Positions 35,846 to 54,953 are shown, numbered from the stretch's first letter. The stretch: DNA of 64,000 nt from Acidobacteriota bacterium (GCA_021324935.1 JAJPIE010000029.1:18697-82696); one strand, 5' to 3'. The notes: generated by a model not told the origin, from the letters alone. Program-made: numbers and translations.

Positions 35846-35848
35846 CGC

Positions 35849-36133
35849 TCACCACCTTTTCGTTTTCATGTTGTGGACATGCACGTGATGCCCCTTGCCG
35901 ATTTCCGCGATGGCGCGGCCCACATCGTGGCCGTATTTGAGGATGGTGTCGCCGGGACGAATGTCGTTGAGGGCGATTTTGTGGCCCAGCGGCACCGGGT
36001 CGAGGGATTTGAGGGAGATAGTTTCATCCGTCTCCATGATCCAGCCGTTCAAGTCCGCGCCGGCTGGCACGTCTTCCACAACCATGACGCCGACGGTGTC
36101 GGCTTTGTCGTGCACAATAAAATGCGTGATCAT
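35849..36133 (-). CDS. suyA: SAF-domain alpha subunit of UxaA/SuyAB lyase
   Basis: FIVHDKADTVGV...GWIM...PLGHKIAL...KYGHDVG...HVHVHNMKTKRW. Confidence 0.75.
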   Translation of the reverse strand: MITHFIVHDKADTVGVMVVEDVPAGADLNGWIMETDETISLKSLDPVPLGHKIALNDIRPGDTILKYGHDVGRAIAEIGKGHHVHVHNMKTKRW

Positions 36134-36173
36134 TGCCCCTTCTCTTTCGTGGATTTACTAAAGCGCTTGCAAA

Positions 36174-36890: not shown

Positions 36891-36971
36891 ATTCTCGTAA
36901 TACGGTACTATGGGTGGGCCATTCATGCAACTTTATTCTCTTATTCCCGCCCACTCTAATTCGAGGTTACC

Positions 36972-38045: not shown

Positions 38046-38055
38046 CGGGAAACCC

Positions 38056-38859
38056 ATGCTGACCAGCCGATACTTTATCGACCTCACACAACCGGAAATC
38101 GCGGCGCAATTGAAAAAACACCCGCTGGTGATATTGCCGCAGGGCAGCGTGGAGCAGCATGGCCCGCATCTGCCGACGGGAACGGACATTTACGCGTCCA
38201 ATATAATTGGCCACGCGGTGGCCGAGCGCATGGATGGGCTGGTCCTGCCTGGCGGACCGCTGGGTGTCACCCCACTGCACATGCCGTTTGAAGGCACGAT
38301 TACGCTCACGCCAGACACCTATATCCGGCTGGTGATGGAAACCTGCGGCTCGATGGCAAAGCACGGCGCCAAATACCTGCTGATTTTGAACTGGCACGAG
38401 ATGAATATTCCGGCGCTGGGTGTTGCGGCGGACCGGCTGCATCGCGAGCATGGCATGACCGTGCTCACCGTGCAGGCTTGTTACGTGGCCGAGGAGCACT
38501 TCGGCAAGGAGTGTGGGGGCCTGACGCATGGCGGCGAAATCGAGGCACTGGCGGTTTTGGCATATCGGCCGGACCTTGTGCATCTCGACCGCATCGATTA
38601 CTCCTCTGACCACACCCATGGCAAGCGGGTTGACGCCTTGCGGCGCACGCGCATCTATCAGCCGGTGCTGACGGATGTCCGCTCGATTGCCCCAACGGGC
38701 TGGTACGGCAGCCCGCAACATGCAACGGCGGAAAAAGGGCGGAAGATGGTCGCTGAGGTGGCTGATTCCATCGCGGCAAAGGCAAAAGAAATCTTCCGGG
38801 AACTCGACCGCATCCAGGGCGGCGTGGCGGAAGTCCGCACTTTGGACAAGGGATGCTGA
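38056..38859 (+). CDS. Creatininase-family cyclic amidohydrolase
   Basis: GSVEQHGPHLPTGTD, LNWHEMN and HGGEIE metal-ligand motifs. Confidence 0.88.
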   Translation: MLTSRYFIDLTQPEIAAQLKKHPLVILPQGSVEQHGPHLPTGTDIYASNIIGHAVAERMDGLVLPGGPLGVTPLHMPFEGTITLTPDTYIRLVMETCGSMAKHGAKYLLILNWHEMNIPALGVAADRLHREHGMTVLTVQACYVAEEHFGKECGGLTHGGEIEALAVLAYRPDLVHLDRIDYSSDHTHGKRVDALRRTRIYQPVLTDVRSIAPTGWYGSPQHATAEKGRKMVAEVADSIAAKAKEIFRELDRIQGGVAEVRTLDKGC

Positions 38860-39257
38860 TGGCCCAGGTATTCCGACAATCGGAGGCGAAGCAACTCGGG
38901 CTTCCCGGGCGTAAGGCGCTGGAAATCGTCTCTGGGGCCCTTGGCTCGCGCAATGTGACGCTGCGGCTGGCGGAAATCCCCGTGCCGCAGCCCGGCGATC
39001 CTCCGCGCGCCGCGCATCAACACAATGAATTTGAGGAGTGTATCTTCGTCCTTTCCGGAGAAGGCAGGACGTATGCGGATAGCGGCGAATTTTCGCTGAA
39101 GGCGGGAGACACGCTTCTGATGCCTGCGGGCGAAAAACATGTCACGCGCAACACGGGCAAAGAGCCGCTCTTGCTTCTCTGTTTCTTTCCCGTGCCGGAT
39201 ATCACCGCAGGCACGCAGGAACCCGGCGTTTCCAGGGGGCCCTCGAATCGATCATGA
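38859..39257 (+). CDS. Cupin domain protein
   Basis: HQHNEFEECIFVLSG and PAGEKHVTRN. TGATG overlap with the upstream gene. Confidence 0.85.
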   Translation: MAQVFRQSEAKQLGLPGRKALEIVSGALGSRNVTLRLAEIPVPQPGDPPRAAHQHNEFEECIFVLSGEGRTYADSGEFSLKAGDTLLMPAGEKHVTRNTGKEPLLLLCFFPVPDITAGTQEPGVSRGPSNRS

Positions 39258-40234
39258 GCTGTGACGTCCTTTGCCTGAGACCCGAAGCGGATTTTCAGCG
39301 TGTCGGCGCCATGCCGCCAGCGCATCTCGACGTTGTTTACCGCGCATGGAATGATCCCGATGTTCCGGCGTTGATGAGAGAAGCGCGAGCGCTGGTGATT
39401 CCGGCCGTTGGCCCGAAGCTGCCGGCAAGCCTATTCGAGAAGAGTACGGTGAAGTTCGTGCAGGTCACCGGCGCCGGGCTGGATCGCCTGGATCTGCCCT
39501 TCCTGAAACAACGCAGCATCGCCGTGGCCAACGTTCCCGGCGGGAGCAATGAAGCCGTTGCGGAATACGCCGTGACCACCGCCAGCGTGCTATTGCGGCG
39601 TTTTGCGTGGGCCGATGCGGAAATTCGCCGGGGCAATTATCGTGATTTTCGCGCGCGCATGATCGCAGACAGCCTGCTGGGCCTGGATGGCTTGACCGTG
39701 GGGATTGTCGGTTTCGGCGTGATCGGCGTCGCAGTGGCCAGCGCGTTTCACAAGCGCGGGTGCTCCATTCTTTTTTATGATCCGGCGCCGCGGGATCCGA
39801 AAGCCGCGGAGGCGCTTGGCGCGAAAGCATGCTCACTGGATGAACTTCTGCGCGTATCCGACGTAGTTACGCTGCACGTGCCATTATTGCCGCAGACGAC
39901 CGGCTTGATCGGCGGGCGTGAATTTTCCCTGATGAAACCCGGCGCCGTGCTCGTACAGGCTTCGCGTGGCGGCATCGTCGATGAAGCGGCGCTGGTGCAG
40001 GCGTTGCAGGACGGAAAACTGGGTGGAGTGGCCGTTGACGTTTATTCCACGGAGCCGCCGGCGACGGACCACCCGCTGTTTATGTTGCAGGGTGAAGCCG
40101 GACTCCGGATTCTTTTTACGCCGCATATTGCCGGCGTGACACGGCAATCAACGGCATTTCTCTGCCGCTCCGCGTGGAGGAACGTCGACCGATTTTTTTC
40201 AGGAACGGAAGCACCCCTGGACGTGGTGAATTGA
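39254..40234 (+). CDS. D-isomer-specific 2-hydroxyacid dehydrogenase
   Basis: TGAGLD, VGIVGFGVIG, LHVPLLPQT, ASRGGIVDE, DVYSTEP, TPHIAG. Confidence 0.92.
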   Translation: MSCDVLCLRPEADFQRVGAMPPAHLDVVYRAWNDPDVPALMREARALVIPAVGPKLPASLFEKSTVKFVQVTGAGLDRLDLPFLKQRSIAVANVPGGSNEAVAEYAVTTASVLLRRFAWADAEIRRGNYRDFRARMIADSLLGLDGLTVGIVGFGVIGVAVASAFHKRGCSILFYDPAPRDPKAAEALGAKACSLDELLRVSDVVTLHVPLLPQTTGLIGGREFSLMKPGAVLVQASRGGIVDEAALVQALQDGKLGGVAVDVYSTEPPATDHPLFMLQGEAGLRILFTPHIAGVTRQSTAFLCRSAWRNVDRFFSGTEAPLDVVN

Positions 40235-40362
40235 AGCCGGGTTCGGGACACAACCACGGGTTATGGCGCAGGCTGTGTTGCCGGTGCGGGACTTAACTCA
40301 GGGGATCGTACGGGCAGCCCGGAGTGGCTGTGCAACAGAATTTGCAGCGCGGAGACCATCGA

Positions 40363-41667
40363 GTGGGCAACGTCGCGTCGAATCGAAAAGCCAGGCCCTG
40401 GTACAGCGTGCTTTATATCCAGGTGCTGATTGCCGTGGTGGTAGGGTGCGTCATCGGCGCCTTGTTTCCGAAAACGGGTATGGCGCTGAAACCGCTCGGG
40501 GATTCCTTCGTAGCGCTCATCCGCATGATGATCGCTCCGGTGATCTTCTGCGTGATCGTGCAAGGGATCGCGTCGATGAGCGACCTGAAAAAGGTGGGCA
40601 CGATCGGCGTAAAAACGCTTGTCTATTTCGAAATCGTCTCCACGCTGGCCCTGATCATTGGTATTTTGGTCGCCGTCGCGTTTCACCCCGGCTACGGCCT
40701 CAATATTGACCCGGCGACCCTGGACCCGAAGGCGGCTTCGGCATTTGCTACACGCGCCAAGGAATCGGGATTCATTCCCTTTCTTGTGGGTTTCCTTCCG
40801 AAAACATATATCGGGGCACTTGCTGAAGGAGAAGTGCCGCAAGTCCTGCTGATTTCGATCCTGACGGGGTTCGCGATCGCCAATATGGGCGAAGTGGGCC
40901 TGCGCGCGCTGAAGGGCATTGAGATCGCGAACAAAGTGGTGTTCGGTATCGTGCGGATCGTGGTCCGCGCCGCGCCTCTCGGCGCCTTGGGCGGGATGGC
41001 GTTCACAGTGGGGAGCTACGGCGTCGCTTCGCTGACGAACCTGTTGAAGCTAATGGGCACGTTTTACCTTTCGAGCTTCTTGTTCGTGGTGGCGGTGCTG
41101 GGGACCATCGCGCATTTTGCAGGGTTTTCGATTTTTCGCTTCCTGGCGTATATCAAAGACGAATTGTTGATTGTGCTGGGAACCAGCTCTTCGGAAACCG
41201 TGCTGCCGGATATGATGCGCAAGCTGGAGGCATTGGGCGCGCCGCGAACCATAGTGGGCCTGGTTTTCCCGACTGGCTATGTCTTCAATACGGACGGCAC
41301 GAATATTTATCTGACACTCTCCGCCATTTTTCTGGCGCAAGCCACCAACACGCATCTCTCGATGGGACAGATCGCCGGCATTCTGCTCTTTGCACTGGTA
41401 GCATCCAAGGGGGGATCCGGCGTAACCGGAACGGGCTTTGTGACGCTGGCGGCCATTCTTGCAGCTGTGCCCTCGATTCCCGTCCAGTCACTGGCGTTGC
41501 TGGTCGGAATCGAAAAGTTCATGAGTGAATGCCGCGCGCTGACCAATGTTGTGGGCAACGGCGTGGCAACACTGGTCGTGAGCCGCTGGCAAGGCGAATT
41601 AGACGTGGTCAACATGCGGCGCGTGATGGAGTCGCGAACGGAAAATGGCACGCCGGATTCGGCGTGA
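40363..41667 (+). CDS. dctA: Dicarboxylate/amino acid:cation symporter (DctA), copy 1
   Basis: LYIQVLIA, GTSSSETVLP, PTGYVFNTDGT, SKGGSGVTG. GTG 40363 fits RBS GGAG; alternative start 40324. Confidence 0.9.
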   Translation: MGNVASNRKARPWYSVLYIQVLIAVVVGCVIGALFPKTGMALKPLGDSFVALIRMMIAPVIFCVIVQGIASMSDLKKVGTIGVKTLVYFEIVSTLALIIGILVAVAFHPGYGLNIDPATLDPKAASAFATRAKESGFIPFLVGFLPKTYIGALAEGEVPQVLLISILTGFAIANMGEVGLRALKGIEIANKVVFGIVRIVVRAAPLGALGGMAFTVGSYGVASLTNLLKLMGTFYLSSFLFVVAVLGTIAHFAGFSIFRFLAYIKDELLIVLGTSSSETVLPDMMRKLEALGAPRTIVGLVFPTGYVFNTDGTNIYLTLSAIFLAQATNTHLSMGQIAGILLFALVASKGGSGVTGTGFVTLAAILAAVPSIPVQSLALLVGIEKFMSECRALTNVVGNGVATLVVSRWQGELDVVNMRRVMESRTENGTPDSA

Positions 41668-41718
41668 TGCCAAGGCAGCGCGGACGGAAAAATTGCAAAC
41701 GCCACCCGAGGCGAACGC

Positions 41719-42960
41719 TTAGTTGCCCGAAGGCATTTCGAGATTGCGGACCAGCCAGGGCACCAGCACTTTCCGGAATATTACCGGATCCGGCCAGATC
41801 TTCACCTGACGTCCCAGATGCCCGCCCTGCGGATTGATCCACGCCTCTTTTGGAACGTCTCCGTTGCTCAGCAGGAGATACGCGTCAGAAACTGGCACTT
41901 GTGTGTCCAGGGCACCGGCGATAATGAGCATGGATGTGGTCGGCTTGCCCAATAGATGCTGATTGACGAGGGAAAGCTTCGGGAGAATTTCTCCCAGGTC
42001 CTCGACTTTGTTCGCGCCTTCAAAAATCGACATGAGCGCCGGGCCAAGGCCGAATAGATATTCGCGATTGCCGAGCGTTTTCTGGAGAACGAAATCCTTC
42101 TGAAAGGTGGCGTCGACCGGAGGGGATTGCGCGACGACTGCCTTTAGGCGCGCGTGCTCAACGATGGCGAGTTTCGTAGCCCAATACGCGCCAAAGCTCT
42201 GGCCGTCGACGCCGATGCGCGTTTTATCCACTTCCGGCCGCGACTCCAGGTAATCGATCACTTTGGAAAACATGCGTTCGGCATTGACGCCAGCCTTGAT
42301 TGGCGCCTGGCCTGTGCCGGGGGAATCGATGCCAATGAATCCGATGCCGGAATTCAGAACCACGCCGAAATTTACAGAGAGGTCTTCCTTGCGGCTGTCG
42401 AGCCCGCTGATGGCAATCACCACGGGAACGGGGCCTTTCTCGTTTTTCGGCAAACGCATGTAGCCGACGATCTCCGAACCTTCGAAGGGAATGCGCACCA
42501 CCTCGAGCGGGGGATCCATCATCTTCGCGTGCGCCAGAAACGCCTCCAGCGCCTTGGTGTAGGCGCGCTGCTTGCCGGGCGAAGCGGGGACCGGCCAGCG
42601 CCCAAAGGAATAGAGGCGCCAGGCGCGAATAAAATCCGCGTCGGCCTTCCTGGGATCGCTGGCAAGCAGCGAATTGCCCTCATTCATGTAACGATCGGCA
42701 ACGGCGCTGAACGCGGCGGCCCATTTGTCGTTGTCCATGGTATCGATGTGCGAAAAGGCTTCGCGCACGTCCGCCGAATCGAGCCCGATGAGCGGGTACA
42801 TGCCATTTTCGGCGCGCTTGATCGCCTCGGCCTTGATTTCGTCCAAGGTGCGCTCTTGTTGCGGCTGAGCGTTAGAGGGAGGCACCAGCGAAGCCAGAAA
42901 AATTGCTGCAAACAAACCGAATAGAAATTCACGCAAAACAGGTCTCCTTTGACGGCTCAT
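41719..42960 (-). CDS. Secreted alpha/beta hydrolase, FrsA/DUF1100-like
   Basis: Signal peptide, RIPFEG, ISGLDSRKED, DSPGTG, GQSFGAYW nucleophile elbow. Confidence 0.8.
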   Translation of the reverse strand: MSRQRRPVLREFLFGLFAAIFLASLVPPSNAQPQQERTLDEIKAEAIKRAENGMYPLIGLDSADVREAFSHIDTMDNDKWAAAFSAVADRYMNEGNSLLASDPRKADADFIRAWRLYSFGRWPVPASPGKQRAYTKALEAFLAHAKMMDPPLEVVRIPFEGSEIVGYMRLPKNEKGPVPVVIAISGLDSRKEDLSVNFGVVLNSGIGFIGIDSPGTGQAPIKAGVNAERMFSKVIDYLESRPEVDKTRIGVDGQSFGAYWATKLAIVEHARLKAVVAQSPPVDATFQKDFVLQKTLGNREYLFGLGPALMSIFEGANKVEDLGEILPKLSLVNQHLLGKPTTSMLIIAGALDTQVPVSDAYLLLSNGDVPKEAWINPQGGHLGRQVKIWPDPVIFRKVLVPWLVRNLEMPSGN

Positions 42961-43952
42961 TTTGCTTTGACAAGGGCGGCATCATAGTAGGAGGGATCGT
43001 AATATTTATCCGGCGAAGGTGGATGGCCGCCCCAGGAACCTTCCACTTCTGCGCGAAGTTTCAGCACGTTTTTGAAACCTGCGATGTCGAAGGCTGCGTC
43101 CTTGGCGAATCCTCCCGGCTCATTGACGCTCATTTCGTAGTCTTCAGCAGCAATTTCCGGCGCAAGGTGGAATTGCTTGGTGAGGAGTTCAACGACCTGC
43201 GCCTTGTTTGCGGGGTTCATCAACCAGCGCTGCGCCTCAATGCACGCCGTGAGGAACGAAATCAGGACCTCGCGATGCTCCTTGGCCCAGGCGCGTTGCG
43301 TGAAGAATCCCGCAGCCTGGTAGGGGCCGATCAGCTTTTGCACCGAGCCGAGGCTAGCGAAGCCTTCATGCTTGGCGACCAGGGAAGTCGGCGGTCCCAG
43401 CATTGAGCCGGCGAAGTCTTTGTTTTCCCGCATGGCCACCAGGCGCATCGGCGTGGCCCCGTAGGCTTTCATCTGGTAATCTTTGTCGGCAGCCATGCCC
43501 TGAAGCAGCATGATTTTTTTCATCTGCAGAGCGTACGCGGTGTTTACCGCATCGACGATGAGGGTCTTTCCACGGAGATCCGCGAAGGACTTGACGACGG
43601 GCTGAACGATAAGCTCATTTTGCGAGCCTTCGCCGCCCATGACGATGACCACGTCCTGGTGGGCGAGTTCGACCATGGCTACATCGTTGTCGACAGCAAG
43701 GTACGCGAGGTCACCCTTCCCCCCCGCCAGATCGCTGCGCAACTCTTCGGAATTTTTCTTGTTGTCGTTAATGACTTCGAGCCCGTACTTGGCGAAGAGT
43801 CCCTGCTGGTCGGCGATGACAAATTGCAACGGCCTGCCAAGCAGCGTGAGCACGTGAATTTGCCGCTTCGGCGCGGGCTGCGCCTGGCAAATCGCCGAAA
43901 GCAGAATCGCGCACAATAGCAGCACGAGTGCAGCGGGAGCGATGCGTTTCAT
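42957..43952 (-). CDS. Substrate-binding protein, NMT1/SsuA/THI5-like
   Basis: Signal peptide MKRIAPAALVLLLC, QGLFAKYGLEV, SFADLRGKTL, type-2 PBP pattern. ATG 43952. Confidence 0.8.
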   Translation of the reverse strand: MKRIAPAALVLLLCAILLSAICQAQPAPKRQIHVLTLLGRPLQFVIADQQGLFAKYGLEVINDNKKNSEELRSDLAGGKGDLAYLAVDNDVAMVELAHQDVVIVMGGEGSQNELIVQPVVKSFADLRGKTLIVDAVNTAYALQMKKIMLLQGMAADKDYQMKAYGATPMRLVAMRENKDFAGSMLGPPTSLVAKHEGFASLGSVQKLIGPYQAAGFFTQRAWAKEHREVLISFLTACIEAQRWLMNPANKAQVVELLTKQFHLAPEIAAEDYEMSVNEPGGFAKDAAFDIAGFKNVLKLRAEVEGSWGGHPPSPDKYYDPSYYDAALVKAK

Positions 43953-43975
43953 TGGTTTCTCCTGTCGAGAAAGAA

Positions 43976-45580
43976 TCATGGTGCGCCTTCGTTGAGCTTA
44001 TCGAGCGACCACTCAGTTACGGGCATGGGGTCCAGACTGGGCTTGCCAAGGTTCGGGCAGCTCAAAGCATACAGCCCAGTATCGGTGGCCGCCCAGATCA
44101 CGTTGCGATCCCATTCGACGAGGACGTTATCCACGGTACGGTCGTAGCTGCCGAATTTTTTCAGATCGCCGCCCTGTGGGGGAATGAAGTACGCCACTTC
44201 CTCGGGCCGGTAAAGATCGCCGATATCATAGCAGCGCAATCCGGCAATGAAATAGCTGTAGGCGATGAACTCCTGACGCGGCTTTCCCGGAGCTTTCAGA
44301 TGAGGAGGATTGTGAGCGCCAAAACGTCCGCGCTTGAAGCAGAAATCGCGGTAAGGCGCTTCGGGCGGCGGAACAGGGCGCGGAAGTTGCGCGACGGGGA
44401 CGGGATTGGTCTCGTCGCGGATGTCGACCACCCAATTCGGCAAATAAATTTGGTTGCAGTCGGAGTTCGTTGTCTCCCCGTTGGTCAGGACGAAGCCGCG
44501 TTCGAGGATGCCGCAATAAATGGTGTGGAACGCAATGCCCATGCCGGCGTATTGCGGTGGCGGTTCAAACTTTCCGATCTCTTTCTGGTGCTCCGGGTCG
44601 GAAAGATCGAGAATGCGGAAGCCGTTGCACCCAAAGGCGCCGTAACCGCGATTCCCGCCGTCTTCGAGTTTCTTGGGAACGTAGACAGGACCATGCAGCC
44701 CGGCAAACGGCGTCTGGTCGGCAACAACTTTGGGCGGCACAAGCTTCGACCAAACCCACTTGTTATATTCCGCTTCTTCGCCCTTGCGCGATCCGGGTAC
44801 CCACCACATCGAGACTTCTTTGACGTTCGTGGGATCGGACATATCTACGATCATGTTGCCGTTGACGAGTTCGCGGAAATACGAAGGCTGGTGAATGAAG
44901 CTTTCGTCGGGCGCGGTGTCGAGATAGGCGTATTTGCCGCCGTCGTAGTAATTGCGGTGAGTACCTTGGCCGGTGGCGCCAGTACTGAATTCGGAAAGCT
45001 TCACGATGTTGGAGGGATTGGTGGCATCATAGACTCGAATTCCGCGCAGCCCTTTGTAGTTCTTCCGCTTGTCGTCGAGGTGCGGGTCATCATATTTGCC
45101 CATCGGCGCTTCGGGAGTGGAATCGGTGATGGGAGTTTGCGCCCCAGTGACCAGAATCCACTTTTTCAGATTCTTGTTGTAAGCCACCTGGACCTGATAG
45201 CCGTCGAAGCCGCCTTTATTGAACATGGTGGGCTTGCGCACGTCGCTCACATCAACCACGTCGCCCTGCTGGAAGATATAGCGGCGATTGCCAACGGACA
45301 TCATCTGCATTTTCCCGTGGCGCGGCTGGCCCGGCGCGAAATGTGCCAGGACTTCCATATTCCGGATATACATTCGGCGATCGAGATAAGAAATGCTGTT
45401 CGGGCTGGGATGGCCATGATGGTCTGCCAGAGCGGACAATGGGGAAGCGGCCAAGGCCAACCCCGCGCCGGCGGCGGTTCGGAGGAAGTCGCGGCGCGTG
45501 GGGTGGGGAGTCTTTGCTTTGAGCACTTTTGACAGGTCGTTCGATGAGTGCGGCGTACGAGATGATTTCTTGCGTTTCAT
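43976..45580 (-). CDS. Tat-exported LVIVD-repeat beta-propeller protein
   Basis: TRRDFLR twin-arginine signal, repeated RILDLSDP / WVVDIRDETNP / RCYDI motifs, RFGAHN. ATG 45580. Confidence 0.8.
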   Translation of the reverse strand: MKRKKSSRTPHSSNDLSKVLKAKTPHPTRRDFLRTAAGAGLALAASPLSALADHHGHPSPNSISYLDRRMYIRNMEVLAHFAPGQPRHGKMQMMSVGNRRYIFQQGDVVDVSDVRKPTMFNKGGFDGYQVQVAYNKNLKKWILVTGAQTPITDSTPEAPMGKYDDPHLDDKRKNYKGLRGIRVYDATNPSNIVKLSEFSTGATGQGTHRNYYDGGKYAYLDTAPDESFIHQPSYFRELVNGNMIVDMSDPTNVKEVSMWWVPGSRKGEEAEYNKWVWSKLVPPKVVADQTPFAGLHGPVYVPKKLEDGGNRGYGAFGCNGFRILDLSDPEHQKEIGKFEPPPQYAGMGIAFHTIYCGILERGFVLTNGETTNSDCNQIYLPNWVVDIRDETNPVPVAQLPRPVPPPEAPYRDFCFKRGRFGAHNPPHLKAPGKPRQEFIAYSYFIAGLRCYDIGDLYRPEEVAYFIPPQGGDLKKFGSYDRTVDNVLVEWDRNVIWAATDTGLYALSCPNLGKPSLDPMPVTEWSLDKLNEGAP

Positions 45581-45788
45581 GCATGGCTCCTTGGGTTGGG
45601 CCCGGGGAAGCACGACTTCCTGTGGCAGACTCCTCAGTAATTGAGCTCAGCCCTGTGCGCAGGAAGAGAACAGCGCCAAATGGGGCAAAGCTCAAAGCCC
45701 AAACGTAAAAAGGTAGGACCCCTGTACCACTTGGCGCGGAGGACTGTCAACGACTAAATTCTATAAATCAGATATTTCAATGCTTAGC

Positions 45789-45830: not shown

Positions 45831-45896
45831 TCCCCTTTTGCTTGCGATCCCAAGCGAACCCATTTGCCTGGGCTGGGAAAATGAGTGAGGCCAACC

Positions 45897-47261
45897 ATGG
45901 CGATTGCCACTGTAAATCCGACGACAGGACAAGTCGTTAAAACTTTTGAGCCATTAAGCAGCGCGCAGATCGAAATCAAGCTGCAGAAAGCCATCGACAC
46001 TTTCCATACTTACCGCAAGACTCCGTTTTCCCAGCGCGCCCAATGGATGCTGAAAGCCGCTTCGATCCTCGAGAATGAAAAAGAAGCGTTTGCAAAAGTG
46101 ATGACCACGGAGACGGGCAAAACGCTGCGCTCAGCCGTGGACGAAGCGGCGAAGTGCGCATGGGTTTGCCGGTATTACGCGGAGAACGCGGAGCGCTTCC
46201 TGGCCGATGAGATCGTGGAGACGGGAGCAAAGAAGAGCTACATCCACTACCAGCCGCTGGGACCAATCCTCGCCGTGATGCCCTGGAATTTCCCGTTCTG
46301 GCAGGTGTTGCGATTTGCCGCACCGGCGCTGATGGCGGGAAACGTTGGCTTGCTGAAGCACGCTTCGATTGTTCCGCAGAGCGCGCTTTCGATTGAGGAA
46401 TTACTTCTGAGAGCGGGGTTCCCCGATGGCGCGTTTCAGACGCTGCTCGTCGGCTCGAAAGAAGTGGACCGCATCCTGGCCGACCACCGCGTGATGGCCG
46501 CAACGCTGACGGGCAGCGAGCAAGCAGGGATTGAAGTGGGCATTGGCGCTGCAAAAAGAATCAAGAAGGTCGTGCTGGAGCTTGGTGGAAGCGATCCCTT
46601 TATTGTCATGCCCAGCGCCAACCTGGAGACGGCCACGAGCACGGCGGTGAAGGCGCGCATTTTCAATAACGGGCAATCCTGCATCGCCGCGAAGCGTTTC
46701 ATCGTTGCGGAAAGCATCGCCGACAAGTTTGAAGGCTTGTTCGCCCGGAAGATGGCGGAGCTGCGCGTGGGAGATCCCTTTGACGAGAGCACGGAGCTGG
46801 GCCCGCTTTCGACGGCGGATGGAGTGAAGGATCTGGAGCGCGACGTGCAAAGATCCGTAGAGTTGGGCGCAAAAATTTTGACCGGCGGAAAAGCCCTGCA
46901 GCGGCCGGGGAACTTCTATGCCCCCACGGTGCTGGTCAACATCCCGCAGGATTCGCCCGCCTACAAGGAAGAAATGTTCGGCCCGGTAGCCAGCGTCTTC
47001 CGTGCGAAAGATATCGACGATGCCATCCGCATCGCGAACGACAGTCGGTTTGGACTAGGCGCCAGCGCCTGGACCAACGATCCTGCCGAACAGCAGAAAT
47101 TCATTCAGGAATTGGAAGCGGGCATGGTCTTCATTAACCGCATGGTGGCTTCCGACCCACGCATCCCGTTTGGTGGGGTGAAATGGTCCGGACATGGGCG
47201 GGAACTAGGTGCGGTGGGAATCAGGGAATTCACGAATATGAAGACAGTCTGGGTAGAATAG
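45897..47261 (+). CDS. NAD(P)-dependent succinate-semialdehyde dehydrogenase (Sad/GabD1-type ALDH)
   Basis: VMPWNFPFWQV, LKHAS, LELGGSDP, NNGQSCIAAKR, EEMFGPV, PFGGVKWSGHGRE. Confidence 0.9.
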   Translation: MAIATVNPTTGQVVKTFEPLSSAQIEIKLQKAIDTFHTYRKTPFSQRAQWMLKAASILENEKEAFAKVMTTETGKTLRSAVDEAAKCAWVCRYYAENAERFLADEIVETGAKKSYIHYQPLGPILAVMPWNFPFWQVLRFAAPALMAGNVGLLKHASIVPQSALSIEELLLRAGFPDGAFQTLLVGSKEVDRILADHRVMAATLTGSEQAGIEVGIGAAKRIKKVVLELGGSDPFIVMPSANLETATSTAVKARIFNNGQSCIAAKRFIVAESIADKFEGLFARKMAELRVGDPFDESTELGPLSTADGVKDLERDVQRSVELGAKILTGGKALQRPGNFYAPTVLVNIPQDSPAYKEEMFGPVASVFRAKDIDDAIRIANDSRFGLGASAWTNDPAEQQKFIQELEAGMVFINRMVASDPRIPFGGVKWSGHGRELGAVGIREFTNMKTVWVE

Positions 47262-47313: not shown

Positions 47314-47414
47314 CTCGACCATATCTCGGTCTGCCGCGTCTACCGCCTGAGTGTCCCCTTCCTTAGCGCCCAGATCAATGCGTCGATGAACTCGGTGTGG
47401 CCTCGGAGGTGCAG

Positions 47415-48110
47415 ATGTATAAGATCGTTCGCTCTTCTCGCCTTTATGAGCAGATCGTCCAGCAGGTCGAGGAATCCATCCACAAGGGAGCTTTAAAACC
47501 GGGGGACCAATTGCCACCGGAACGTGAACTTGCCGAGCAGTTTGGTGTGAGTCGTACGGCAGTGCGCGAAGCGGTGAAAACCTTGCGGGAAAAAGGTCTT
47601 GTGGAGGCGTATCCCGGACGCGGAACATTTATCACCGACGGAAGTTCCTACACCATGCGGCAGTCTTTTGACAGGTTGCTGCGTTCCGGAAATGAGGGAT
47701 TTGCATCGCTGGCCGAGGTGCGCGAGATACTGGAGCCGGAAATCGCCGCGCTGGCGACGACTCGCGCGGACGGCGAGGATCTGGCGGCGATGCGCGAGCA
47801 AGTGGCCGTGATGGATGCGGCGCGGCGTGATCCCGACGCGTACATCGAAGCGGATCTCGATTTTCATCTTGCGCTCGCCGAAGCGGCCGGAAATCCGATC
47901 ATACTTTCGTTGATTGATTCGATCGTGGGACTTCTGCGCGAACAGCGCATGGGGATTTTCCAGGTGGAAGGCGGCCCGGAGCGCGGCCAGTATCATCACA
48001 AGCGGATTCTGGAAGCGATCGAGCACCGGGATCCGGTGGGTGCGCGGGAAGCAATGAAAGCGCATTTGAAGCAAGTCCGCGAAGATTCGCGGAATGCGCC
48101 CAGCGAATAA
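47415..48110 (+). CDS. FadR/GntR-family transcriptional regulator (PdhR/LldR-like)
   Basis: LKPGDQLPPERELAEQFGVSRTAVREAVKTL, RGTF, FCD domain DLDFHLALAEAAGN. ATG 47415 with RBS GGAGG. Confidence 0.93.
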   Translation: MYKIVRSSRLYEQIVQQVEESIHKGALKPGDQLPPERELAEQFGVSRTAVREAVKTLREKGLVEAYPGRGTFITDGSSYTMRQSFDRLLRSGNEGFASLAEVREILEPEIAALATTRADGEDLAAMREQVAVMDAARRDPDAYIEADLDFHLALAEAAGNPIILSLIDSIVGLLREQRMGIFQVEGGPERGQYHHKRILEAIEHRDPVGAREAMKAHLKQVREDSRNAPSE

Positions 48111-48161: not shown

Positions 48162-49043
48162 GTGGCTAATTTAGGATTCGTCGGACTGGGTGTGATGGGC
48201 AGCGAAATGGTGAATCGTCTGCTCAGCAAGGGGCACGGCGTCACCGGCTGGAACCGGACGCGGTCCAAAGCCGAATGGCTGCTGAAGAAGGGAATGAAGT
48301 GGGCGGATTCACCGCGAGCCGTGGCCGAAGCCTCAGACGTGATCTTCTCCATGGTCACAAATTCGGCGGCGCTCGCGGCGGTGATGAACGGCCCGGATGG
48401 CATGTTGGTGGCTGCGGGGCCCAACAAGACCTTCGTGGACATCAGCACGGTGGCTCCGGCGGTGAGCCGCGATTTTGCCGCAAAGCTCCGGGAAAAAGGC
48501 AGCGACATGGTGGACGCGCCAGTTTCGGGCAGCGTGATCACACTGCAGGAGGGGAAGCTCTCCGTGATGGTGGGGGGCCGCAAGGAAACTTTCGAGAAGG
48601 TAAAGCCGCTGCTGCTCGACATCGGTCCGAAGGTGACGCACGTGGGAAACAACGGACTCGCCCTGGTGATGAAGATCGGCACCAACTTGAGCCTGGCGGT
48701 GCAAATGCTCGCCTTTTGCGAGGGCGTCCTGCTGGCCGAAAAGAGCGGCATCAAGCGGGAAGTCGCGGTGGACGTGCTGACACATAGCGTGATCGCTTCG
48801 CCGATGGTGCAATATCGCGGCCCATTCGTGCTGAAGCAACCCGATGAAGCCTGGTTCAACGTAAACATGATGCAAAAAGACATGCTGTTAGCGCTTGAAT
48901 TGGGACGGCAACTCGACGTGCCCATGCCGACGACGGCAGTGACCAACGAATTTCTGACCGCGGCGCGCGGAATGGGCTTGGTGGAAAAGGATTTCGCAGT
49001 CGTATTTGACGTACTGGCACAGATGTCCGGGGTAAAACCATGA
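48162..49043 (+). CDS. NAD(P)-dependent beta-hydroxyacid dehydrogenase, second paralog
   Basis: LGFVGLGVMG, DISTVAP, DAPVSG, MVGG, MK, KDMLLAL. Confidence 0.9.
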   Translation: MANLGFVGLGVMGSEMVNRLLSKGHGVTGWNRTRSKAEWLLKKGMKWADSPRAVAEASDVIFSMVTNSAALAAVMNGPDGMLVAAGPNKTFVDISTVAPAVSRDFAAKLREKGSDMVDAPVSGSVITLQEGKLSVMVGGRKETFEKVKPLLLDIGPKVTHVGNNGLALVMKIGTNLSLAVQMLAFCEGVLLAEKSGIKREVAVDVLTHSVIASPMVQYRGPFVLKQPDEAWFNVNMMQKDMLLALELGRQLDVPMPTTAVTNEFLTAARGMGLVEKDFAVVFDVLAQMSGVKP

Positions 49044-50038
49044 AAACGGCCGAAGAAGCCATAAAGACGGAAGCGGCAGTTTCCCCAGAATTGGGAATCC
49101 GGCTGTACCGGCAGATGGTACGGATTCGCCTCTTCGAAGAACAGGTGAACGAGCTTTATATGCGCGCGCTGATGCCAGGCCTTGCGCACCTGTATATCGG
49201 CGAGGAAGCCATCGCGGTGGGTCTCTGCGAGGCACTGAAAAAGACGGACTACATCACCAGCACGCACCGCGGCCACGGGCATTGCCTGGCCAAGGGAGCC
49301 GAGCCCGACCGCATGTTCGCGGAGCTTTTGGGGAAGGAAGCCGGCTATTGTCGGGGCAAAGGCGGCTCGATGCACATCGCGGACCCGGCAACGGGAAATC
49401 TCGGAGCTAACGCCATTGTTTGCGGCAGTGCGGGAATTGCAACAGGCGCCGCGCTTACGGCGAAGCGATTGAAGCAGGATAATGTGTCGGTTTGCTTTTT
49501 TGGCGAGGGCGCGCTCGGCCAGGGAGTCCTCTACGAAGTGATGAATCTGGCGACACTTTTCAAGCTGCCGGTGATCTACGTCTGTGAAAACAATTTCTAC
49601 ACCGAATACACGCACTACACGGAGACGACGGCGGGCGACATCCTGACCCGCGGCACGGCGTTCGGCGTGCATTCCGAGAGCGTGGACGGGCAGGACGTGC
49701 GCGCGGTTTACGCCGCCGCGAACCGGCTCGTCAGCCGCGCGCGGCGTGGCGAAGGCCCCGCCTTCCTCGTAGCCAACACGTATCGCTACACGGGCCACCA
49801 CGTTGGCGATATCAACCGAGAATACTACCGCTCCAAGCAGGAAGAGCAGGAGTGGAAGACAAAGCGGGATCCCATCAAGAACATGGGCGAATGGCTGGTG
49901 AGCCAGAAGATCACCGATGCCGCCGCGCTAAAAAAAATCGAGGACGAAGTCCGGCAGGAGATGAAGGCAGCGGTCGAGTTTGCGATCGCCGCGCCGTATC
50001 CCTCCGTGGAGGAGGTCGATCAGGACGTTTATGCCTGA
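49040..50038 (+). CDS. ThDP-dependent 2-oxoacid/acetoin dehydrogenase E1 alpha
   Basis: HLYIGEEA, STHRGHGH, GKGGSMH, GEGA...CENN, TYRYTGH. Confidence 0.9.
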   Translation: MKTAEEAIKTEAAVSPELGIRLYRQMVRIRLFEEQVNELYMRALMPGLAHLYIGEEAIAVGLCEALKKTDYITSTHRGHGHCLAKGAEPDRMFAELLGKEAGYCRGKGGSMHIADPATGNLGANAIVCGSAGIATGAALTAKRLKQDNVSVCFFGEGALGQGVLYEVMNLATLFKLPVIYVCENNFYTEYTHYTETTAGDILTRGTAFGVHSESVDGQDVRAVYAAANRLVSRARRGEGPAFLVANTYRYTGHHVGDINREYYRSKQEEQEWKTKRDPIKNMGEWLVSQKITDAAALKKIEDEVRQEMKAAVEFAIAAPYPSVEEVDQDVYA

Positions 50039-51026
50039 AACAGCCCAGCGGGAACTAACATTTGCCCAAGCCATCCGGGAAGCGCTTGCGGAAGAGATGT
50101 GGCGCGATCCGCGCGTGTGCATCTTCGGAGAAGACGTTGCGGAAGCTGGCACGCCATTCAAAGTTCTGTCCGGATTGGTGGAGGAGTTTGGAGCCGAACG
50201 CGTGTTGGACACGCCGATTTCCGAACAGGGTTTCACCGGAATGGGCGTGGGCGCGGCAATGACCGGCCTGCGGCCAGTGGTGGATATCATGTTCGGCGAT
50301 TTTCTGACGCTGACGATGGACCAACTGGTGAACCAGGCGGCGAAGGTCCACTACATGTCCGGGGGAACATGGAAAGTGCCGATGGTGTTGCGCACCACGC
50401 TGGGAGCGACACGCCGTTCCGCGGCGCAACATTCGCAGTCCCTGCATGCCTGGCTTTGCCATGTGCCGGGTTTGAAGGTCGCCATGCCTTCCACGCCGTA
50501 TGATGCGAAGGGCCTGCTGAAAACAGCGATCCGCGACGACAATCCGGTGATCTTTTTCGAAGACAAAATGATGTACAAGCAAAAAGGCCGCGTGCCAGCC
50601 GAAGATTACACGATTCCCTTTGGCGTGGCGGACGTTAAACGCGAAGGTGAAGACATTACGCTGGTGGCCACCAGCAGCATGGTGGATGTCGCCCTGGGCG
50701 CCGCGAAACTCCTGGAGGGCATTGGCGTAAGCGCGGAAGTGATTGATCCACGGACGATGTGGCCGCTGGACGAGAAGACCTTGGTGGAATCCGCAAAGAA
50801 GACCTCGCGCGCGATCGTGATTGACGAGGGCTACGGCCGCTATGGCGTGACCGGTGAAGTTGCCTCCGTAATCGCCGAAGGCGCATTCTTCAATCTCGAG
50901 GCACCGGTCAAGCGCATGGGTGCGATGCACGTGCCAATTCCATTTTCGCCGCCGCTGGAAGACGTCACCGTGCCAACCGAGCAGACGGTCTTCGAAGCGG
51001 CGCGCAAACTGTGCGGCAAAGCCTGA
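50031..51026 (+). CDS. 2-oxoacid/acetoin dehydrogenase E1 beta
   Basis: GEDVA, DTPISEQG, DIMFGDF, AAQHSQ, EVIDPRT. ATG 50031. Confidence 0.92.
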   Translation: MPETAQRELTFAQAIREALAEEMWRDPRVCIFGEDVAEAGTPFKVLSGLVEEFGAERVLDTPISEQGFTGMGVGAAMTGLRPVVDIMFGDFLTLTMDQLVNQAAKVHYMSGGTWKVPMVLRTTLGATRRSAAQHSQSLHAWLCHVPGLKVAMPSTPYDAKGLLKTAIRDDNPVIFFEDKMMYKQKGRVPAEDYTIPFGVADVKREGEDITLVATSSMVDVALGAAKLLEGIGVSAEVIDPRTMWPLDEKTLVESAKKTSRAIVIDEGYGRYGVTGEVASVIAEGAFFNLEAPVKRMGAMHVPIPFSPPLEDVTVPTEQTVFEAARKLCGKA

Positions 51027-51051
51027 ACAGTATTTCCTGAGGAGGCGTATC

Positions 51052-52395
51052 GTGGCAATCAAAACATACGGCCCGATGGCCGTGGATTGGGAAAATCGCA
51101 TCGATTTTGACCGCCTGCGCCGCGAGCGGCTGGCGAAGGCGAAGGCACTGCTCGCAAAGTCTGAAATGGGCGCGTTGCTCTGCTTCGACATGAACAACGT
51201 GCGGTATCTCACCGCAACCCACATCGGCACATGGGCGCAGGACAAGATCAGCCGTTTTTGCCTGCTGCCGCAAAATGACGAACCGATTCTGTGGGACTTC
51301 GGTTCAGCCGCCCGCCACCACCAGCAAAATTGCCCGTGGCTTGGCGAGCGCTCCCGCGCCGGCATCCCCCTGCTCCGGGGCGCGATGTCTCCGGAAATGG
51401 GGCGCGCGGAGAATGTGGCGCGCAAAATCAAGGTGGAACTTGAGAAGAGGGGCTTGCTCAACGAGCCTCTGGGCATCGACGTGGTCGAGCCGCCAATTCT
51501 GTTCGCGCTGCAACGCGAAGGCATTAAGATCGTCGACGGGCAGCAATTGATGTCCGACGCACGGGTGATCAAAACGCAGGACGAAATTTCCCTGCTGACA
51601 CACTCGGCAATGATGGTGGACGCGGCGTACGACGAACTCTATCGCGCCATGAAGCCGGGTTTCACGGAAAACCAGGCAGTGGGCCTGGCCAGCAAGGTCT
51701 TGTACGACCTTGGCTCGGAATACGTGGAGGCGGTGAACGCGATTTCCGGCGAACGCTGCAACCCGCACCCGCACGTCTTCAGCGACCGCGTACTGCGCCC
51801 GGGCGATCCGGTTTACTACGACATCCTGCATTCCTACATGGGCTACCGCACGTGCTATTACCGGTGCTTCACGATCGGTTATGCATCGCACGCGATGGTC
51901 GACGCTTACAAGCGCTGCCGCGATTATCTGGATGCCGCGATCGAGCTGGTGCGGCCTGGCCGCACCACGGCGGAAATCGCTTCCGTATGGCCGAAGGCGC
52001 AAGAGTTCGGCTTTCCGGACGAAGAGGCGGCCTTCGCGCTGCAATTCGGGCACGGCATCGGCCTGGCGATCTGGGAAAAGCCGGTGATCAGCCGCATGGT
52101 CTCGCTGGAGCACTCGCACGAGATCAAGCCGGGAATGGTGTTTGCGCTGGAGACGTTCTGGCCTTCAAAGGACGGCTGGAGCGCGGCGCGCATCGAGGAA
52201 GAGATCGTGGTGACCGAAACGGGTCACGAAGTAATCACGCGCTTCCCCGCTGACCAGCTCATGGTCGCAGGCGCGCATTACTTCACCGTGGACGGTCCGT
52301 TGCCCACGACGCGCGAGAACGAAGCGCCACCAAGCGTCGCGGTTCAAGAGCTGGTGGCCGGGGCAAAGCGTGAAGGCGTGGCGGCTACCGATTGA
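51052..52395 (+). CDS. M24 (creatinase/prolidase-fold) amidohydrolase of unknown specificity
   Basis: N-terminal creatinase domain, KTQDEI, FGHGIGL, ALET, RIEE. GTG 51052 with RBS GGAGG. Confidence 0.85.
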   Translation: MAIKTYGPMAVDWENRIDFDRLRRERLAKAKALLAKSEMGALLCFDMNNVRYLTATHIGTWAQDKISRFCLLPQNDEPILWDFGSAARHHQQNCPWLGERSRAGIPLLRGAMSPEMGRAENVARKIKVELEKRGLLNEPLGIDVVEPPILFALQREGIKIVDGQQLMSDARVIKTQDEISLLTHSAMMVDAAYDELYRAMKPGFTENQAVGLASKVLYDLGSEYVEAVNAISGERCNPHPHVFSDRVLRPGDPVYYDILHSYMGYRTCYYRCFTIGYASHAMVDAYKRCRDYLDAAIELVRPGRTTAEIASVWPKAQEFGFPDEEAAFALQFGHGIGLAIWEKPVISRMVSLEHSHEIKPGMVFALETFWPSKDGWSAARIEEEIVVTETGHEVITRFPADQLMVAGAHYFTVDGPLPTTRENEAPPSVAVQELVAGAKREGVAATD

Positions 52396-52426
52396 TTTAC
52401 TGAAATTTGCATCCTAGGAAAGAACA

Positions 52427-53614
52427 ATGGCTATCAGTGTGGTGATGCCTGCGCTCGAAATGGCGCAGGAAAACGGTAAATTACTCGCCTGGCGCAAAAA
52501 GGAAGGCGAGAGCGTCACAAAAGGCGAACCGCTGCTGGAAGTGGAAACAGACAAGGCGGTCGTCGAAGTGGAAGCGCCGGGTGACGGAATCCTTGCGGGA
52601 ATCACCGCCCAAGTCGGCGCGGTGATTCCAGTTGGGGAGACAATCGCGTGGCTAGTGGCACCCGGTGAGCAACCCCCGGCAAAGGCGGCCACTGCGGCGC
52701 CCGGGGCGCGCGCCACGAGCGCGGCTGCATCGGCAGCGGCGGCTCCAACAGCGGCAAAAACTTCGGCCGAGCCGGTAGCTATTCAGATTTCTCCGAAGGC
52801 ACGGCGTTTGGCGAAAGAACTTGGCGTGGATATTGGCCAGATTCGGGGCACCGGCCCGGACGGCACGATCACTTCCGACGATGTGCAAGCCGCGGCGAGC
52901 GCCAAGGCTTCTGGTGGCGCGACAGCGGCTCCAGCGGCGGCAGAGCCCCTCAGCCAATTGGCGCGCCTGATGGCCGAGCGCACCACGCAAAGCTGGACCA
53001 CGGTGCCCCACTTTTTCCTGCAACAATCCGTCGACGCAAGCGCATTGCAGACATATCAAAAGAAACTCAGTGTGGGCAGCGCGCCGGGAACCTCGCCAAC
53101 GATCACGGATGTGCTGATCGCTTTGATTGCCAGGTCGCTCGAGAAGCACCCCAAGTTGAACGCAAGTTGGACCGGAGACGGAATCCGGCTGAATGCAGAC
53201 ATCAACATCAGTGTCGCGATGGCCGTGAAAGACGGCGTCGTCAGCGCTGTGATTCCCAATGCGAACCGAACGCCGCTGGCAACTCTCTCCACGCTGCGGC
53301 GCGAGCTGACCCAGCGTGCCCGCAGCGGCCGGCTGCGGCCCGCAGACATCACCGGCGGCACCTTCACGCTGAGCAACCTGGGCATGTACAAGATTGACGC
53401 GTTCACCGCGATCATCACGCCGCCGCAATGCGCGATTCTCGCCGTTGGCGCGATCGCAGACGCCGTGGTTCCCGTCGATGGCAACATTGGCGTCCGGCCG
53501 ATGCTGACCATGACGCTTTCGAGCGATCACCGGGTGGTGGACGGAGCGCGCGCCGCCGAATTTCTGGGCGAACTGGCCGTGGCCATTCGCGAACCGGAGA
53601 AGTGGCTGAAATAA
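52427..53614 (+). CDS. Dihydrolipoamide acyltransferase E2
   Basis: Lipoyl domain EVETDKA, E3-binding [12 protein letters not shown]...GTGPDG, catalytic SDHRVVDG. Confidence 0.93.
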
Positions 53615-53681
53615 AGCTTTCGCAAGCTATTCCTGGAGAGGGGATCAGAGCGCCGGCCACTTTGTGCGTCCGGCCCGAACC

Positions 53682-54953
53682 ATGACCAAGCCCAGCGGAA
53701 ACAGCAGGTCTCTGTATGCAAACCCCACAGCCCAGGTTTTGTTTGCCGTCGCCGCGGCGATTGTCCTCGGCTATTTGCATCCCCCCGCAGCCATCGCGAT
53801 GAAGCCGCTAGGCGACGGATTCATCCGCCTGATCACGATGATCATCACGCTGATCATTTTCTGCACCGTGGTGACCGGCATTGCGGGCATGGAAGATATG
53901 AAAAAGGTTGGGCGAGTTGGCGGAAAAGCGCTGATCTATTTCGAAGTGGTCTCCACAGTTGCGCTGCTCATCGGATTTATCATTGGCAATGTCACCAAGC
54001 CCGGCGGAGGCATGAACATCAATCCCGCCACGCTCGACGCCAAGGCCGTAGCGGAATACGCCGGCGCGGCGAAATCGCAAAATGTTCCGGATTTCATCAT
54101 GCACATCATCCCCACCTCGGTGGTGGATGCCTTCGCAAAGGGCGACATTTTGCAAGTGATGCTGATTTCGGTCCTCTTCGGCTTTGCGTTGTCCGCGGTT
54201 GGGCCGCGCTGCAAACCGCTGGTGGATCTGTTCGACGCGCTTACACATGCGGTTTTTGGAGTCGTGCGCATAGTGATGAAGCTTGCGCCGCTCGGAGCGT
54301 TTGGCGCGATGGCCTTCACCGTGGGAAAGTTCGGGCTGGCGTCGCTGGGACCTTTGCTAAAACTGATCGCCATTTTCTATCTGACTTCCCTGCTCTTTGT
54401 TCTGCTCGTTTTAGGAATCATCTGCCGTCTGTGCGGATTCGGGATTTTGCGATTTTTGCGGTACATCAAGGATGAAATTGTGCTGGTGTTGGCGGTAAGT
54501 TCTTCGGAGCCGGCCATGCCGACGCTGATGGAGAAGCTTGAAAAATTGGGCTGTTCCAAGGCGCTGGTCGGGTTAATCGTGCCCACGGGCTACACATTCA
54601 ACACGGACGGCACCGGAATTTACATGACCCTCGCGGCACTGTTTGTGGCGCAGGCGACCGGAACGCAATTGACACTGATGCAACAACTGACCATTCTCGC
54701 GGTTGCCGTGCTGACCTCGAAGGGAGCGAGCGGCGTGCAGGGGGCTTCCTTCATCGCGTTGGTGGGAACGCTGATGGTGATTCCGTCCATCCCAGTCGCC
54801 GGAATGGCGATCATTCTTGGAATCGACCGCTTTATGAGCATGTGCCGTGCCACGGTAAACATGATCGGGAACGGCGTGGCCACCGTGGTGGTGTCGCGAT
54901 GGGAACGCGAATTGGACGGAGCGACGTTACAAAAAAATCTGGCCGCGCAGTGA
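53682..54953 (+). CDS. dctA: Dicarboxylate symporter DctA, copy 2
   Basis: [36 protein letters not shown]. Confidence 0.9.

Follow-up and report, generated by a model that had tools for sequence, protein, structure and literature searches.

What does a protein of the M24, or "pita-bread", fold do in the middle of an operon for a 2-oxoacid dehydrogenase complex? The question is raised by a stretch of 64,000 nucleotides from an Acidobacteriota bacterium (GCA_021324935.1, JAJPIE010000029.1:18697-82696), hereafter the window, in which the gene order is E1alpha-E1beta-M24-E2. A preliminary description of this DNA had pointed to that order and to an Asp-to-Cys change at the metal site of the M24 protein, and had proposed that the protein is not a general peptidase but a pathway amidohydrolase whose product feeds a non-canonical oxoacid dehydrogenase. 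The gene order is borne out by coordinates and domain matches: the span reported then, 49040-53614, runs exactly from the start of E1alpha to the stop of E2. It belongs to a series of eight co-directional genes on the + strand, between 45.8 and 55 kb, encoding an aldehyde dehydrogenase (ALDH), a GntR regulator, a HIBADH-like dehydrogenase, E1alpha, E1beta, M24, E2 and a DctA transporter (Table 1). The results described below make it highly probable that M24 is the non-peptidase signature enzyme of a conserved E1/E2-HIBADH module.

The active site of the M24 protein

The automatic annotation of the protein is "Xaa-Pro aminopeptidase". Its PF00557 match (120.9 bits, cut-off 23) spans residues 175-382 of the 440-aa translation of window positions 51073-52395, and the M24 motifs YYDIL (D257, codon 51820-51822), GYRTCYYR, GHGIG (H334), ALET (E367) and RIEE (E382) are present. 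In HMMER alignments, D257 falls on the first Asp ligand, H334 on the His, and E367 and E382 on the two Glu, and C268 aligns with the second metal Asp of the prolidases 4ege, 3q6d, 5cdl and 1pv9 and of the lyase DddP. The ligand set was thus read correctly in the preliminary description: D, H, E and E are kept and the second Asp is a Cys. A further change was absent from it: W341 replaces the His of GHG(I/V)GLx(V/I)HE. In methionine aminopeptidase (MetAP)-type sites the second Asp bridges both metals; the first Asp of M24 enzymes is a ligand of the second metal alone. Cysteine ligands have precedents in hydrolytic and lyase metal sites, namely those of peptide deformylase, LuxS and D-aminoacylase.

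The best match of M24 in both sequence and fold is DddP, a dimethylsulfoniopropionate (DMSP) lyase (PDB IDs 4S00, 4RZY and 4B28; phmmer E 2e-21). DddP is also the best structural neighbour of the AlphaFold2 (AF2) model of M24 (pLDDT 89.8) in Foldseek, with a TM of 0.76-0.78 at 23% identity. The two proteins have the same two-domain architecture and share the NxRY motif of the N-domain, and DddP is itself a non-peptidase that binds a small carboxylate at its metal site. The metal ligands of DddP are Asp295, Asp297, Asp307, His371, Glu406 and Glu421, and Tyr366 and Asp377 have been proposed as catalytic residues (PMC4108388). Four of these eight residues are absent in M24: Asp297 falls in a gap, Asp307 is replaced by C268, Tyr366 by Ala and Asp377 by Ile340, while the other four metal ligands are kept. 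The genomic context differs too, as M24 is found in soil bacteria beside E1/E2 and HIBADH-like genes and not beside marine DMSP genes. Curated models score as follows: DddP (NF043017), 119 bits versus a cut-off of 600; DoeA (TIGR02993 and NF038259), 65 bits versus 613 and 575; PepQ, 64 bits versus 630; PepP, 33 bits versus 465. The creatinase model is likewise far under its cut-off.

A large family with a cysteine at the metal site

A search of a library of representatives at 50% identity returned 623 clusters at E < 1e-30, and 273 diverse full-length relatives, down to ~35% identity, were aligned. Position 268 is Cys in 264 of the 273, Asp in 7 and Ser in 2; H334, E367 and E382 are kept in 269, 268 and 269, respectively. 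About ten more residues are near-invariant: R26, R51, Y52, W96, D143, K174, E178, R246, Y270 and R271. Position 341, in turn, is Trp in 131 relatives, Tyr in 100 and His in 25. The Cys singled out in the preliminary description is therefore conserved far beyond chance and is not a one-off. The window protein has the family pattern, GY-x-x-C-Y-Y-R followed by His, Glu and Glu, with R26, R51 and Y52 in the N-domain; it belongs to a large, uncharacterised, DddP-related branch of the pita-bread fold.

In 15 members that retain the Cys/His/Glu/Glu set, D257 is replaced by Ala, Asn, Leu, Gln or His. Since the first Asp, a ligand of the second metal only, is replaceable while the other four residues are kept, the alignment suggests that a single metal is held by Cys268, His334, Glu367 and Glu382, or that the Cys acts as an acid/base beside that metal.

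The family is abundant in soil Acidobacteriota and Actinomycetota and comprises thousands of sequences, all annotated "Xaa-Pro aminopeptidase", a name that is almost certainly wrong. Neither a characterised member of the family nor a description of its gene pairings was found in the literature; a Granulicella proteome paper mentions only a generic PepQ.

It is highly improbable that M24 is a mere passenger of the operon, be it a normal Xaa-Pro peptidase or a pseudo-enzyme devoid of activity. Besides the Pfam Peptidase_M24 match and the automatic name, M24 shares with Xaa-Pro dipeptidases and aminopeptidase P (M24B; 4EGE, 1PV9 and 1A16) the pita-bread domain, the first Asp, the His, both Glu residues and the GHGIG and RIEE motifs. 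However, it has a Cys for the bridging Asp and a Trp for the GLxVHE His, its scores against the peptidase models lie far below the cut-offs, and its gene is fixed in a catabolic operon whose linkage persists through rearrangements in three phyla. Furthermore, the 273 sequences show almost no variation in the putative active-site set (Cys/His/Glu/Glu and some ten more residues of the Arg, Tyr, Lys, Asp and Glu types), which argues for catalysis. The earlier statement that M24 is not a general peptidase is well supported, on three counts: two residues that define Xaa-Pro enzymes are replaced, the nearest solved relative is a lyase, and the gene is part of a conserved catabolic module.

Linkage with E1/E2 and HIBADH-like genes

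The neighbourhood of M24 was compared in 80 genome loci, with M24 at 84-95% identity, and in 80 further loci from a metagenome scan with the motif GYxxCYYR. Among the genome loci, the order GntR-HIBADH-E1alpha-E1beta-M24-E2 is found in every acidobacterial locus with enough flanking sequence. A tree built from 114 M24 sequences places the window protein in a clade of 48 rows (SH-aLRT 100): E1alpha/beta genes are nearby in 40 of these, a HIBADH-like gene only in 4, and neither within the available sequence in the remaining 4.

At least five gene orders exist inside the clade: HIBADH-E1alpha-E1beta-M24-E2; M24-E1alpha-E1beta-(E2), with HIBADH further along; HIBADH-M24-E1alpha-E1beta; a divergent arrangement, E1beta<E1alpha<HIBADH | M24; and M24-HIBADH. 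Partners were counted over 119 clade loci, short contigs included, with neighbour annotation covering part of the genes: E1beta was found in 102 loci, E1alpha in 96, the HIBADH-like gene in 89 and E2 in 88, followed by a GntR gene directly upstream (66), an ALDH gene upstream (40) and a DctA gene after E2 (27). The HIBADH-like gene is considered the most constant partner of M24. Nearly all recurrent partners are either NAD(P) dehydrogenases acting on alcohols or hydroxy acids, transporters of the sugar or dicarboxylate type, or regulators of the LacI or GntR family.

Starting from one locus in which M24 comes first, a search assigned that branch to the Actinomycetota, cultured strains included. 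In Nocardioides sp. Soil805, the operon starts with a cupin-HTH regulator, three zinc-type alcohol dehydrogenases (Zn-ADHs), the HIBADH-like gene and a ribose-type ABC transporter, and ends with M24-E1alpha-E1beta-E2(catalytic domain)-ALDH. To note, the E2 of this strain (L201:13369-14046) is called as a 225-aa catalytic domain devoid of lipoyl and E3-binding domains. A Streptomyces strain exhibits HIBADH-CMD-M24 adjoining a fused E1 and an E2. In Ihubacter (Firmicutes), located on a neighbouring branch of the tree, an AcoR/MimR-like sigma-54 activator faces M24-HIBADH-cupin-SSF and, after an insertion sequence (IS) element, a second such activator faces E1alpha-E1beta-E2-E3-LplA. The window E1alpha is 45% identical to that of the AcoR-controlled, aco-like operon in Ihubacter.

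Because it is retained through gene rearrangement across phyla, the linkage with E1/E2 exceeds inherited synteny. The synteny reported for the window thus recurs in acidobacterial, metagenomic and actinobacterial loci.

Two irregularities were observed among these loci. In two Bryobacterales/Bryobacteraceae loci (L040 and L056), the distance from the E1beta start to the M24 start is ~2.6 and 4.5 kb instead of the ~1.0 kb found elsewhere, due to an insertion. Six metagenome-assembled genomes (MAGs) titled Verrucomicrobiia, Limnocylindria, Cybelea, Dormiibacterota, Rugosimonospora and Binatus (L010, L011, L019, L033, L038 and L066) harbour an M24 that is 85-94% identical to that of the window, and when the "Rugosimonospora" genome was taken as the centre of a "phylum" search, the genomes obtained were those of the Acidobacteriota sample. 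The names of these records are probably wrong, or the bins mixed.

An accessory module with a highly conserved M24

In an even sample of the phylum, an ortholog of M24 is present in 10 of 401 Acidobacteriota genomes and in 8 of 228 genera; it is absent from the sampled relatives of the same family and of the same order. The window genome encodes an AceE (1409 bits) and, on another contig, a second E1alpha/beta-E2 set beside Lpd and LipB, the Lpd-like ORF having been identified by eye from its sequence; a fused E1 is also present. It contains a single Cys-site M24. These observations show that the module is accessory and support a non-housekeeping role for its complex. A housekeeping pyruvate dehydrogenase (PDH) with an inserted gene was considered and rejected, in view of the AceE and second E1alpha/beta-E2 set located elsewhere and of the rarity of M24 orthologs. 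The coupling to a dedicated, non-housekeeping complex of 2-oxoacid dehydrogenase type, in line with the non-canonical complex first proposed for the window, is supported by the linkage that survives rearrangement and by the AceE found elsewhere in the genome.

The window E1alpha, E1beta and E2 hold all the usual domains of AcoABCL and of the E1alpha/beta-type PDH. They differ from these systems by the insertion of M24 between E1beta and E2 and by the lack of an E3 (dihydrolipoyl dehydrogenase) gene, none being found between 45.8 and 55 kb. Moreover, E1alpha (346 bits against TIGR03182, cut-off 394) and E2 (286 bits against TIGR01349, cut-off 445) remain below the equivalog cut-offs, E1beta passes a subfamily model only, and a separate AceE exists. 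As at the window, the complex of aco regulons comes with a dehydrogenase and an aldehyde dehydrogenase.

Over the 80 genome loci, M24 is 84-95% identical, E1beta 80-98%, E1alpha 63-91% and E2 54-82%. Between the window and Nocardioides, identity amounts to 63% for M24, as compared to 36% for E1alpha, 44% for E1beta, 31% for HIBADH and 34% for ALDH: M24 is by far the most conserved component of the module between phyla.

This conservation, together with the position of M24 between E1beta and E2 in the commonest arrangement, raises the possibility that it is physically part of the E1/E2 complex, as a fourth component. M24 would then either produce a labile 2-oxoacid on the spot or have the acyl-dihydrolipoyl arm of E2 as its substrate, and its conservation would reflect protein contacts. 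This explanation is unlikely. Some close members of the clade (L164 and L171) have M24 paired with HIBADH and neither E1 nor E2 within 6-7 kb, the two Ihubacter operons are separate, and a dikinase-linked sister clade, described below, is equally conserved without any E1/E2. The idea of a docking tail conserved at the C-terminus of the acidobacterial M24 was also rejected, residues 420-447 being the least conserved stretch of the protein.

Wider neighbourhoods of the family

Away from the E1/E2 module, Cys-site M24 genes are found in diverse settings. In marine contigs, M24 follows a GFO/IDH/MocA gene and precedes a tartrate dehydrogenase that passes its equivalog cut-off, with a divergent E1alpha fragment. 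One 4-Mb genome (GCA_964575845.1) contains 18 Cys-site M24 paralogues (loci L084 and L103-L120) whose neighbours differ: Zn-ADH (five times), D-2-hydroxyacid dehydrogenase, HMGL-like, PALP (PLP-dependent), old-yellow-enzyme type, acyl-CoA ligase, HpaB and PrpD. One of its M24 copies has an in-frame TGA. A deltaproteobacterial contig combines xanthine-dehydrogenase-like subunits, an LIV-type ABC transporter and a hydantoinase-like enzyme with two M24 copies.

A sister clade at 34-38% identity (L125-L157) displays another recurrent association: in 19 of 24 loci (for example at L126:8001-10693), the gene after M24 encodes a 426-aa protein that possesses the ATP-grasp and phosphohistidine (swivel) domains of phosphoenolpyruvate (PEP) synthase but lacks the substrate barrel. 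Next come glyoxylate/hydroxypyruvate-reductase-like, HIBADH-like and GFO genes. These pairs belong to the same Cys/His/Glu/Glu family as the window protein and have similar flanks of HIBADH-like and hydroxy-acid dehydrogenases, with the ATP-grasp and phosphohistidine partner in place of E1/E2. M24 and the 426-aa dikinase-like protein look like an undescribed two-protein, ATP-driven enzyme. The window genome is devoid of such a pair. A shared theme of all these neighbours is the turnover of small 2-oxo and hydroxy acids.

Proposed function of the module

The favoured reading is that M24 binds a small hydroxy- or oxo-acid, which would be acid-sugar-like or dicarboxylate-like, through its carboxylate, the metal site being formed by Cys/His/Glu/Glu. 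A DddP-type abstraction of the alpha-proton would be followed by elimination or by keto/enediol isomerisation, rather than by peptide hydrolysis. The HIBADH-like dehydrogenase would oxidise the adjacent hydroxyl and supply or remove the neighbouring carbonyl. The dedicated E1alpha/beta-E2, with the shared E3 of the cell, would cleave a 2-oxoacid or acyloin to yield an acyl-CoA, and the SSADH-like ALDH would clear the aldehyde product. GntR would regulate the module and DctA import the substrate. We infer that M24 acts before E1. The sequence of dehydrogenase, isomerase and kinase or decarboxylase in acid-sugar routes (gcl-hyi-glxR, threonate/erythronate) is a formal parallel, in resemblance only. 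Taken as a whole, with M24 as the signature enzyme of an accessory catabolic module and with metal site, reaction and partner roles as proposed, this reading is held with about even confidence; the type of reaction, DddP-type elimination or isomerisation, is advanced tentatively and somewhat below that level.

Several points weigh against it. The catalytic Tyr366 and Asp377 of DddP are not conserved in M24, so that Cys268 as the base of a DddP-like elimination would be a guess. Products of HIBADH-family enzymes are 3-oxo acids or semialdehydes, not 2-oxoacids, and the step from HIBADH to E1 is therefore missing or unconventional. To our knowledge, every M24 enzyme characterised outside the MetAP group is a hydrolase, DddP excepted. 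Finally, a nitrogen-containing substrate would fit some related loci, because these hold amidohydrolase-superfamily genes (PRK08204 deaminase-like in two actinobacterial-type loci, hydantoinase-like) and LIV-type amino-acid/amide ABC transporters, the latter in several loci.

These last points lead to the main rival, in which M24 is a pathway amido- or amidinohydrolase resembling creatinase or ectoine hydrolase. Its reaction would be the opening or deacylation of a small nitrogen-containing zwitterion (a cyclic amidine, a lactam, or a ureido or guanidino acid) whose oxidised skeleton passes to E1/E2. It is established that, DddP apart, the M24 non-peptidases known so far hydrolyse C-N bonds, and DoeA/EutD and creatinase illustrate the use of the same fold on small zwitterionic acids, by enzymes whose genes are embedded in pathways. 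Hydantoinase-like and xanthine-dehydrogenase-like enzymes lie beside the two M24 copies of the deltaproteobacterial contig, and creatininase-family genes are found 8-13 kb away in two genomes. The second-best solved relative of the HIBADH-like protein is 2-(hydroxymethyl)glutarate dehydrogenase, an enzyme of nicotinate ring breakdown. Conversely, the constant partners are alcohol and hydroxy-acid dehydrogenases, LacI regulators and a ribose-type (Peripla_BP_4) ABC system are present, and the DoeA and creatinase models are far under their cut-offs. No aminotransferase, nor any family handling urea (urease included) or ammonia, turned up among the neighbours, which were annotated in part. The module differs from DoeA/EutD by having no doeB, doeC or doeD partners, and neither a DoeB-like deacetylase nor a DoeD-like transaminase turned up in the loci studied. 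Creatinase, for its part, works without a metal. The evidence does not separate a C-N hydrolase from the hydroxy- or oxo-acid reading; we consider the former a possible though not a probable explanation. The original proposal of a pathway enzyme feeding an oxoacid dehydrogenase is consequently retained in part: the non-peptidase nature of M24 and its coupling to E1/E2 are supported, while an amidohydrolase activity is no more than possible, as the partners fit a hydroxy- or oxo-acid at least as well as an amide or amidine.

An organosulfonate route (2,3-dihydroxypropane-1-sulfonate (DHPS) or sulfolactate, with M24 as a sulfo-lyase) had been suggested by NMT1/SsuA-like proteins near both clades and by the UxaA/GarD-type dehydratase upstream in the window. 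It is not supported, and no sulfite-handling gene turned up among the partly annotated neighbours.

Beyond the favoured hydroxy- or oxo-acid reading, a bolder view may be formulated, which we regard as rather doubtful. The Cys-site M24 would be a new catalytic class of the pita-bread fold, with a single thiolate-ligated metal and enolate or enediolate chemistry on hydroxy-oxo acids. It would have been coupled twice to "activating" machines, E1-E2 (possibly as a fourth subunit) and the barrel-less dikinase, in undescribed phosphate-sparing routes for acid sugars or dicarboxylates in soil bacteria.

In any case, the module marks a conserved catabolic route ending in a dedicated complex of the 2-oxoacid dehydrogenase type. 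Were the substrate identified, at least four linked gene families would gain a function at once, and a fold that is well studied would gain a new variant of its metal site and, probably, a new reaction. Nocardioides sp. Soil805 and a Streptomyces strain are carriers in culture, which makes the question directly testable.

Organisation of the locus in the window

The coordinates of the module are listed in Table 1. The genes are tightly packed: the HIBADH-like stop overlaps the E1alpha start (49040-49043), the E1beta ATG at 50031 gives an 8-nt overlap with the E1alpha stop, and gaps of 25 nt and 31 nt flank the M24 gene, which starts with a GTG located 7 nt 3' of GAGGAGG.

Table 1. Coordinates of the module genes and of the two substituted M24 codons, in window positions.
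Feature	Coordinates	Strand	Matches and remarks
SSADH-like aldehyde dehydrogenase (ALDH)	45885..47261	+	PF00171, 457 bits; NF006915 NADP-SSADH 688 bits, cut-off 730
GntR/FCD-family transcriptional regulator	47397..48110	+	PF00392 and PF07729
HIBADH-family (beta/gamma-hydroxy-acid) dehydrogenase	48162..49043	+	PF03446 and PF14833
E1 alpha subunit (thiamine pyrophosphate (TPP)-binding), 2-oxoacid / acetoin-type dehydrogenase	49040..50038	+	PF00676, 244 bits
E1 beta subunit	50031..51026	+	PF02779 and PF02780; NF006667 386 bits, over cut-off 321
Cys-site M24-fold enzyme, 447 aa	51052..52395	+	PF00557
Cys268 codon TGC	51853..51855	+	position of second (bridging) metal-binding Asp
Trp341 codon TGG	52072..52074	+	position of conserved His of prolidase motif GLxVHE
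E2 dihydrolipoyl acyltransferase	52427..53614	+	PF00364, PF02817 and PF00198
DctA-type C4-dicarboxylate transporter	53664..54953	+	NF002461 616 bits, over cut-off 513

The E2 possesses one lipoyl domain (ETDKA), an E3-binding domain and a catalytic domain (DHRVVDG). The nearest solved chains of the HIBADH-like protein are 3pef, 3cky, 3doj and 3pdu, which we take to be succinate-semialdehyde/glyoxylate reductases and 2-(hydroxymethyl)glutarate dehydrogenase; against the tartronate-semialdehyde reductase model, it scores 216 bits for a cut-off of 341. The GntR/FCD protein is probably the regulator of the module; its best matches, NanR, LldR and PdhR, are weak and each under its cut-off. DctA is likely the uptake component, and not a constant one.

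Upstream of the module, a divergent pair of genes on the opposite strand precedes ALDH. The first encodes a 545-aa protein with a twin-arginine (Tat) signal (RRDFLRTAAGAGLALAAS; 43976-45613, - strand) that has no match in Pfam, NCBIfam or the PDB, and the second an NMT1-like binding protein (42957-43979, - strand) in the same orientation and with no NCBIfam match. Among 119 related loci, the Tat protein recurs next to the module in 21 and the NMT1-like protein in 17. Further upstream, a second set of acid-catabolism genes occupies window positions 34679-42960. It comprises a UxaA/GarD-type dehydratase, a GntR regulator, a GFO/IDH/MocA protein, a creatininase-family protein and a D-2-hydroxyacid dehydrogenase, as well as a second transporter of SDF/DctA type and an FrsA-like esterase. 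Another FrsA-like esterase adjoins the module of the Streptomyces strain (L202:5445-6548).

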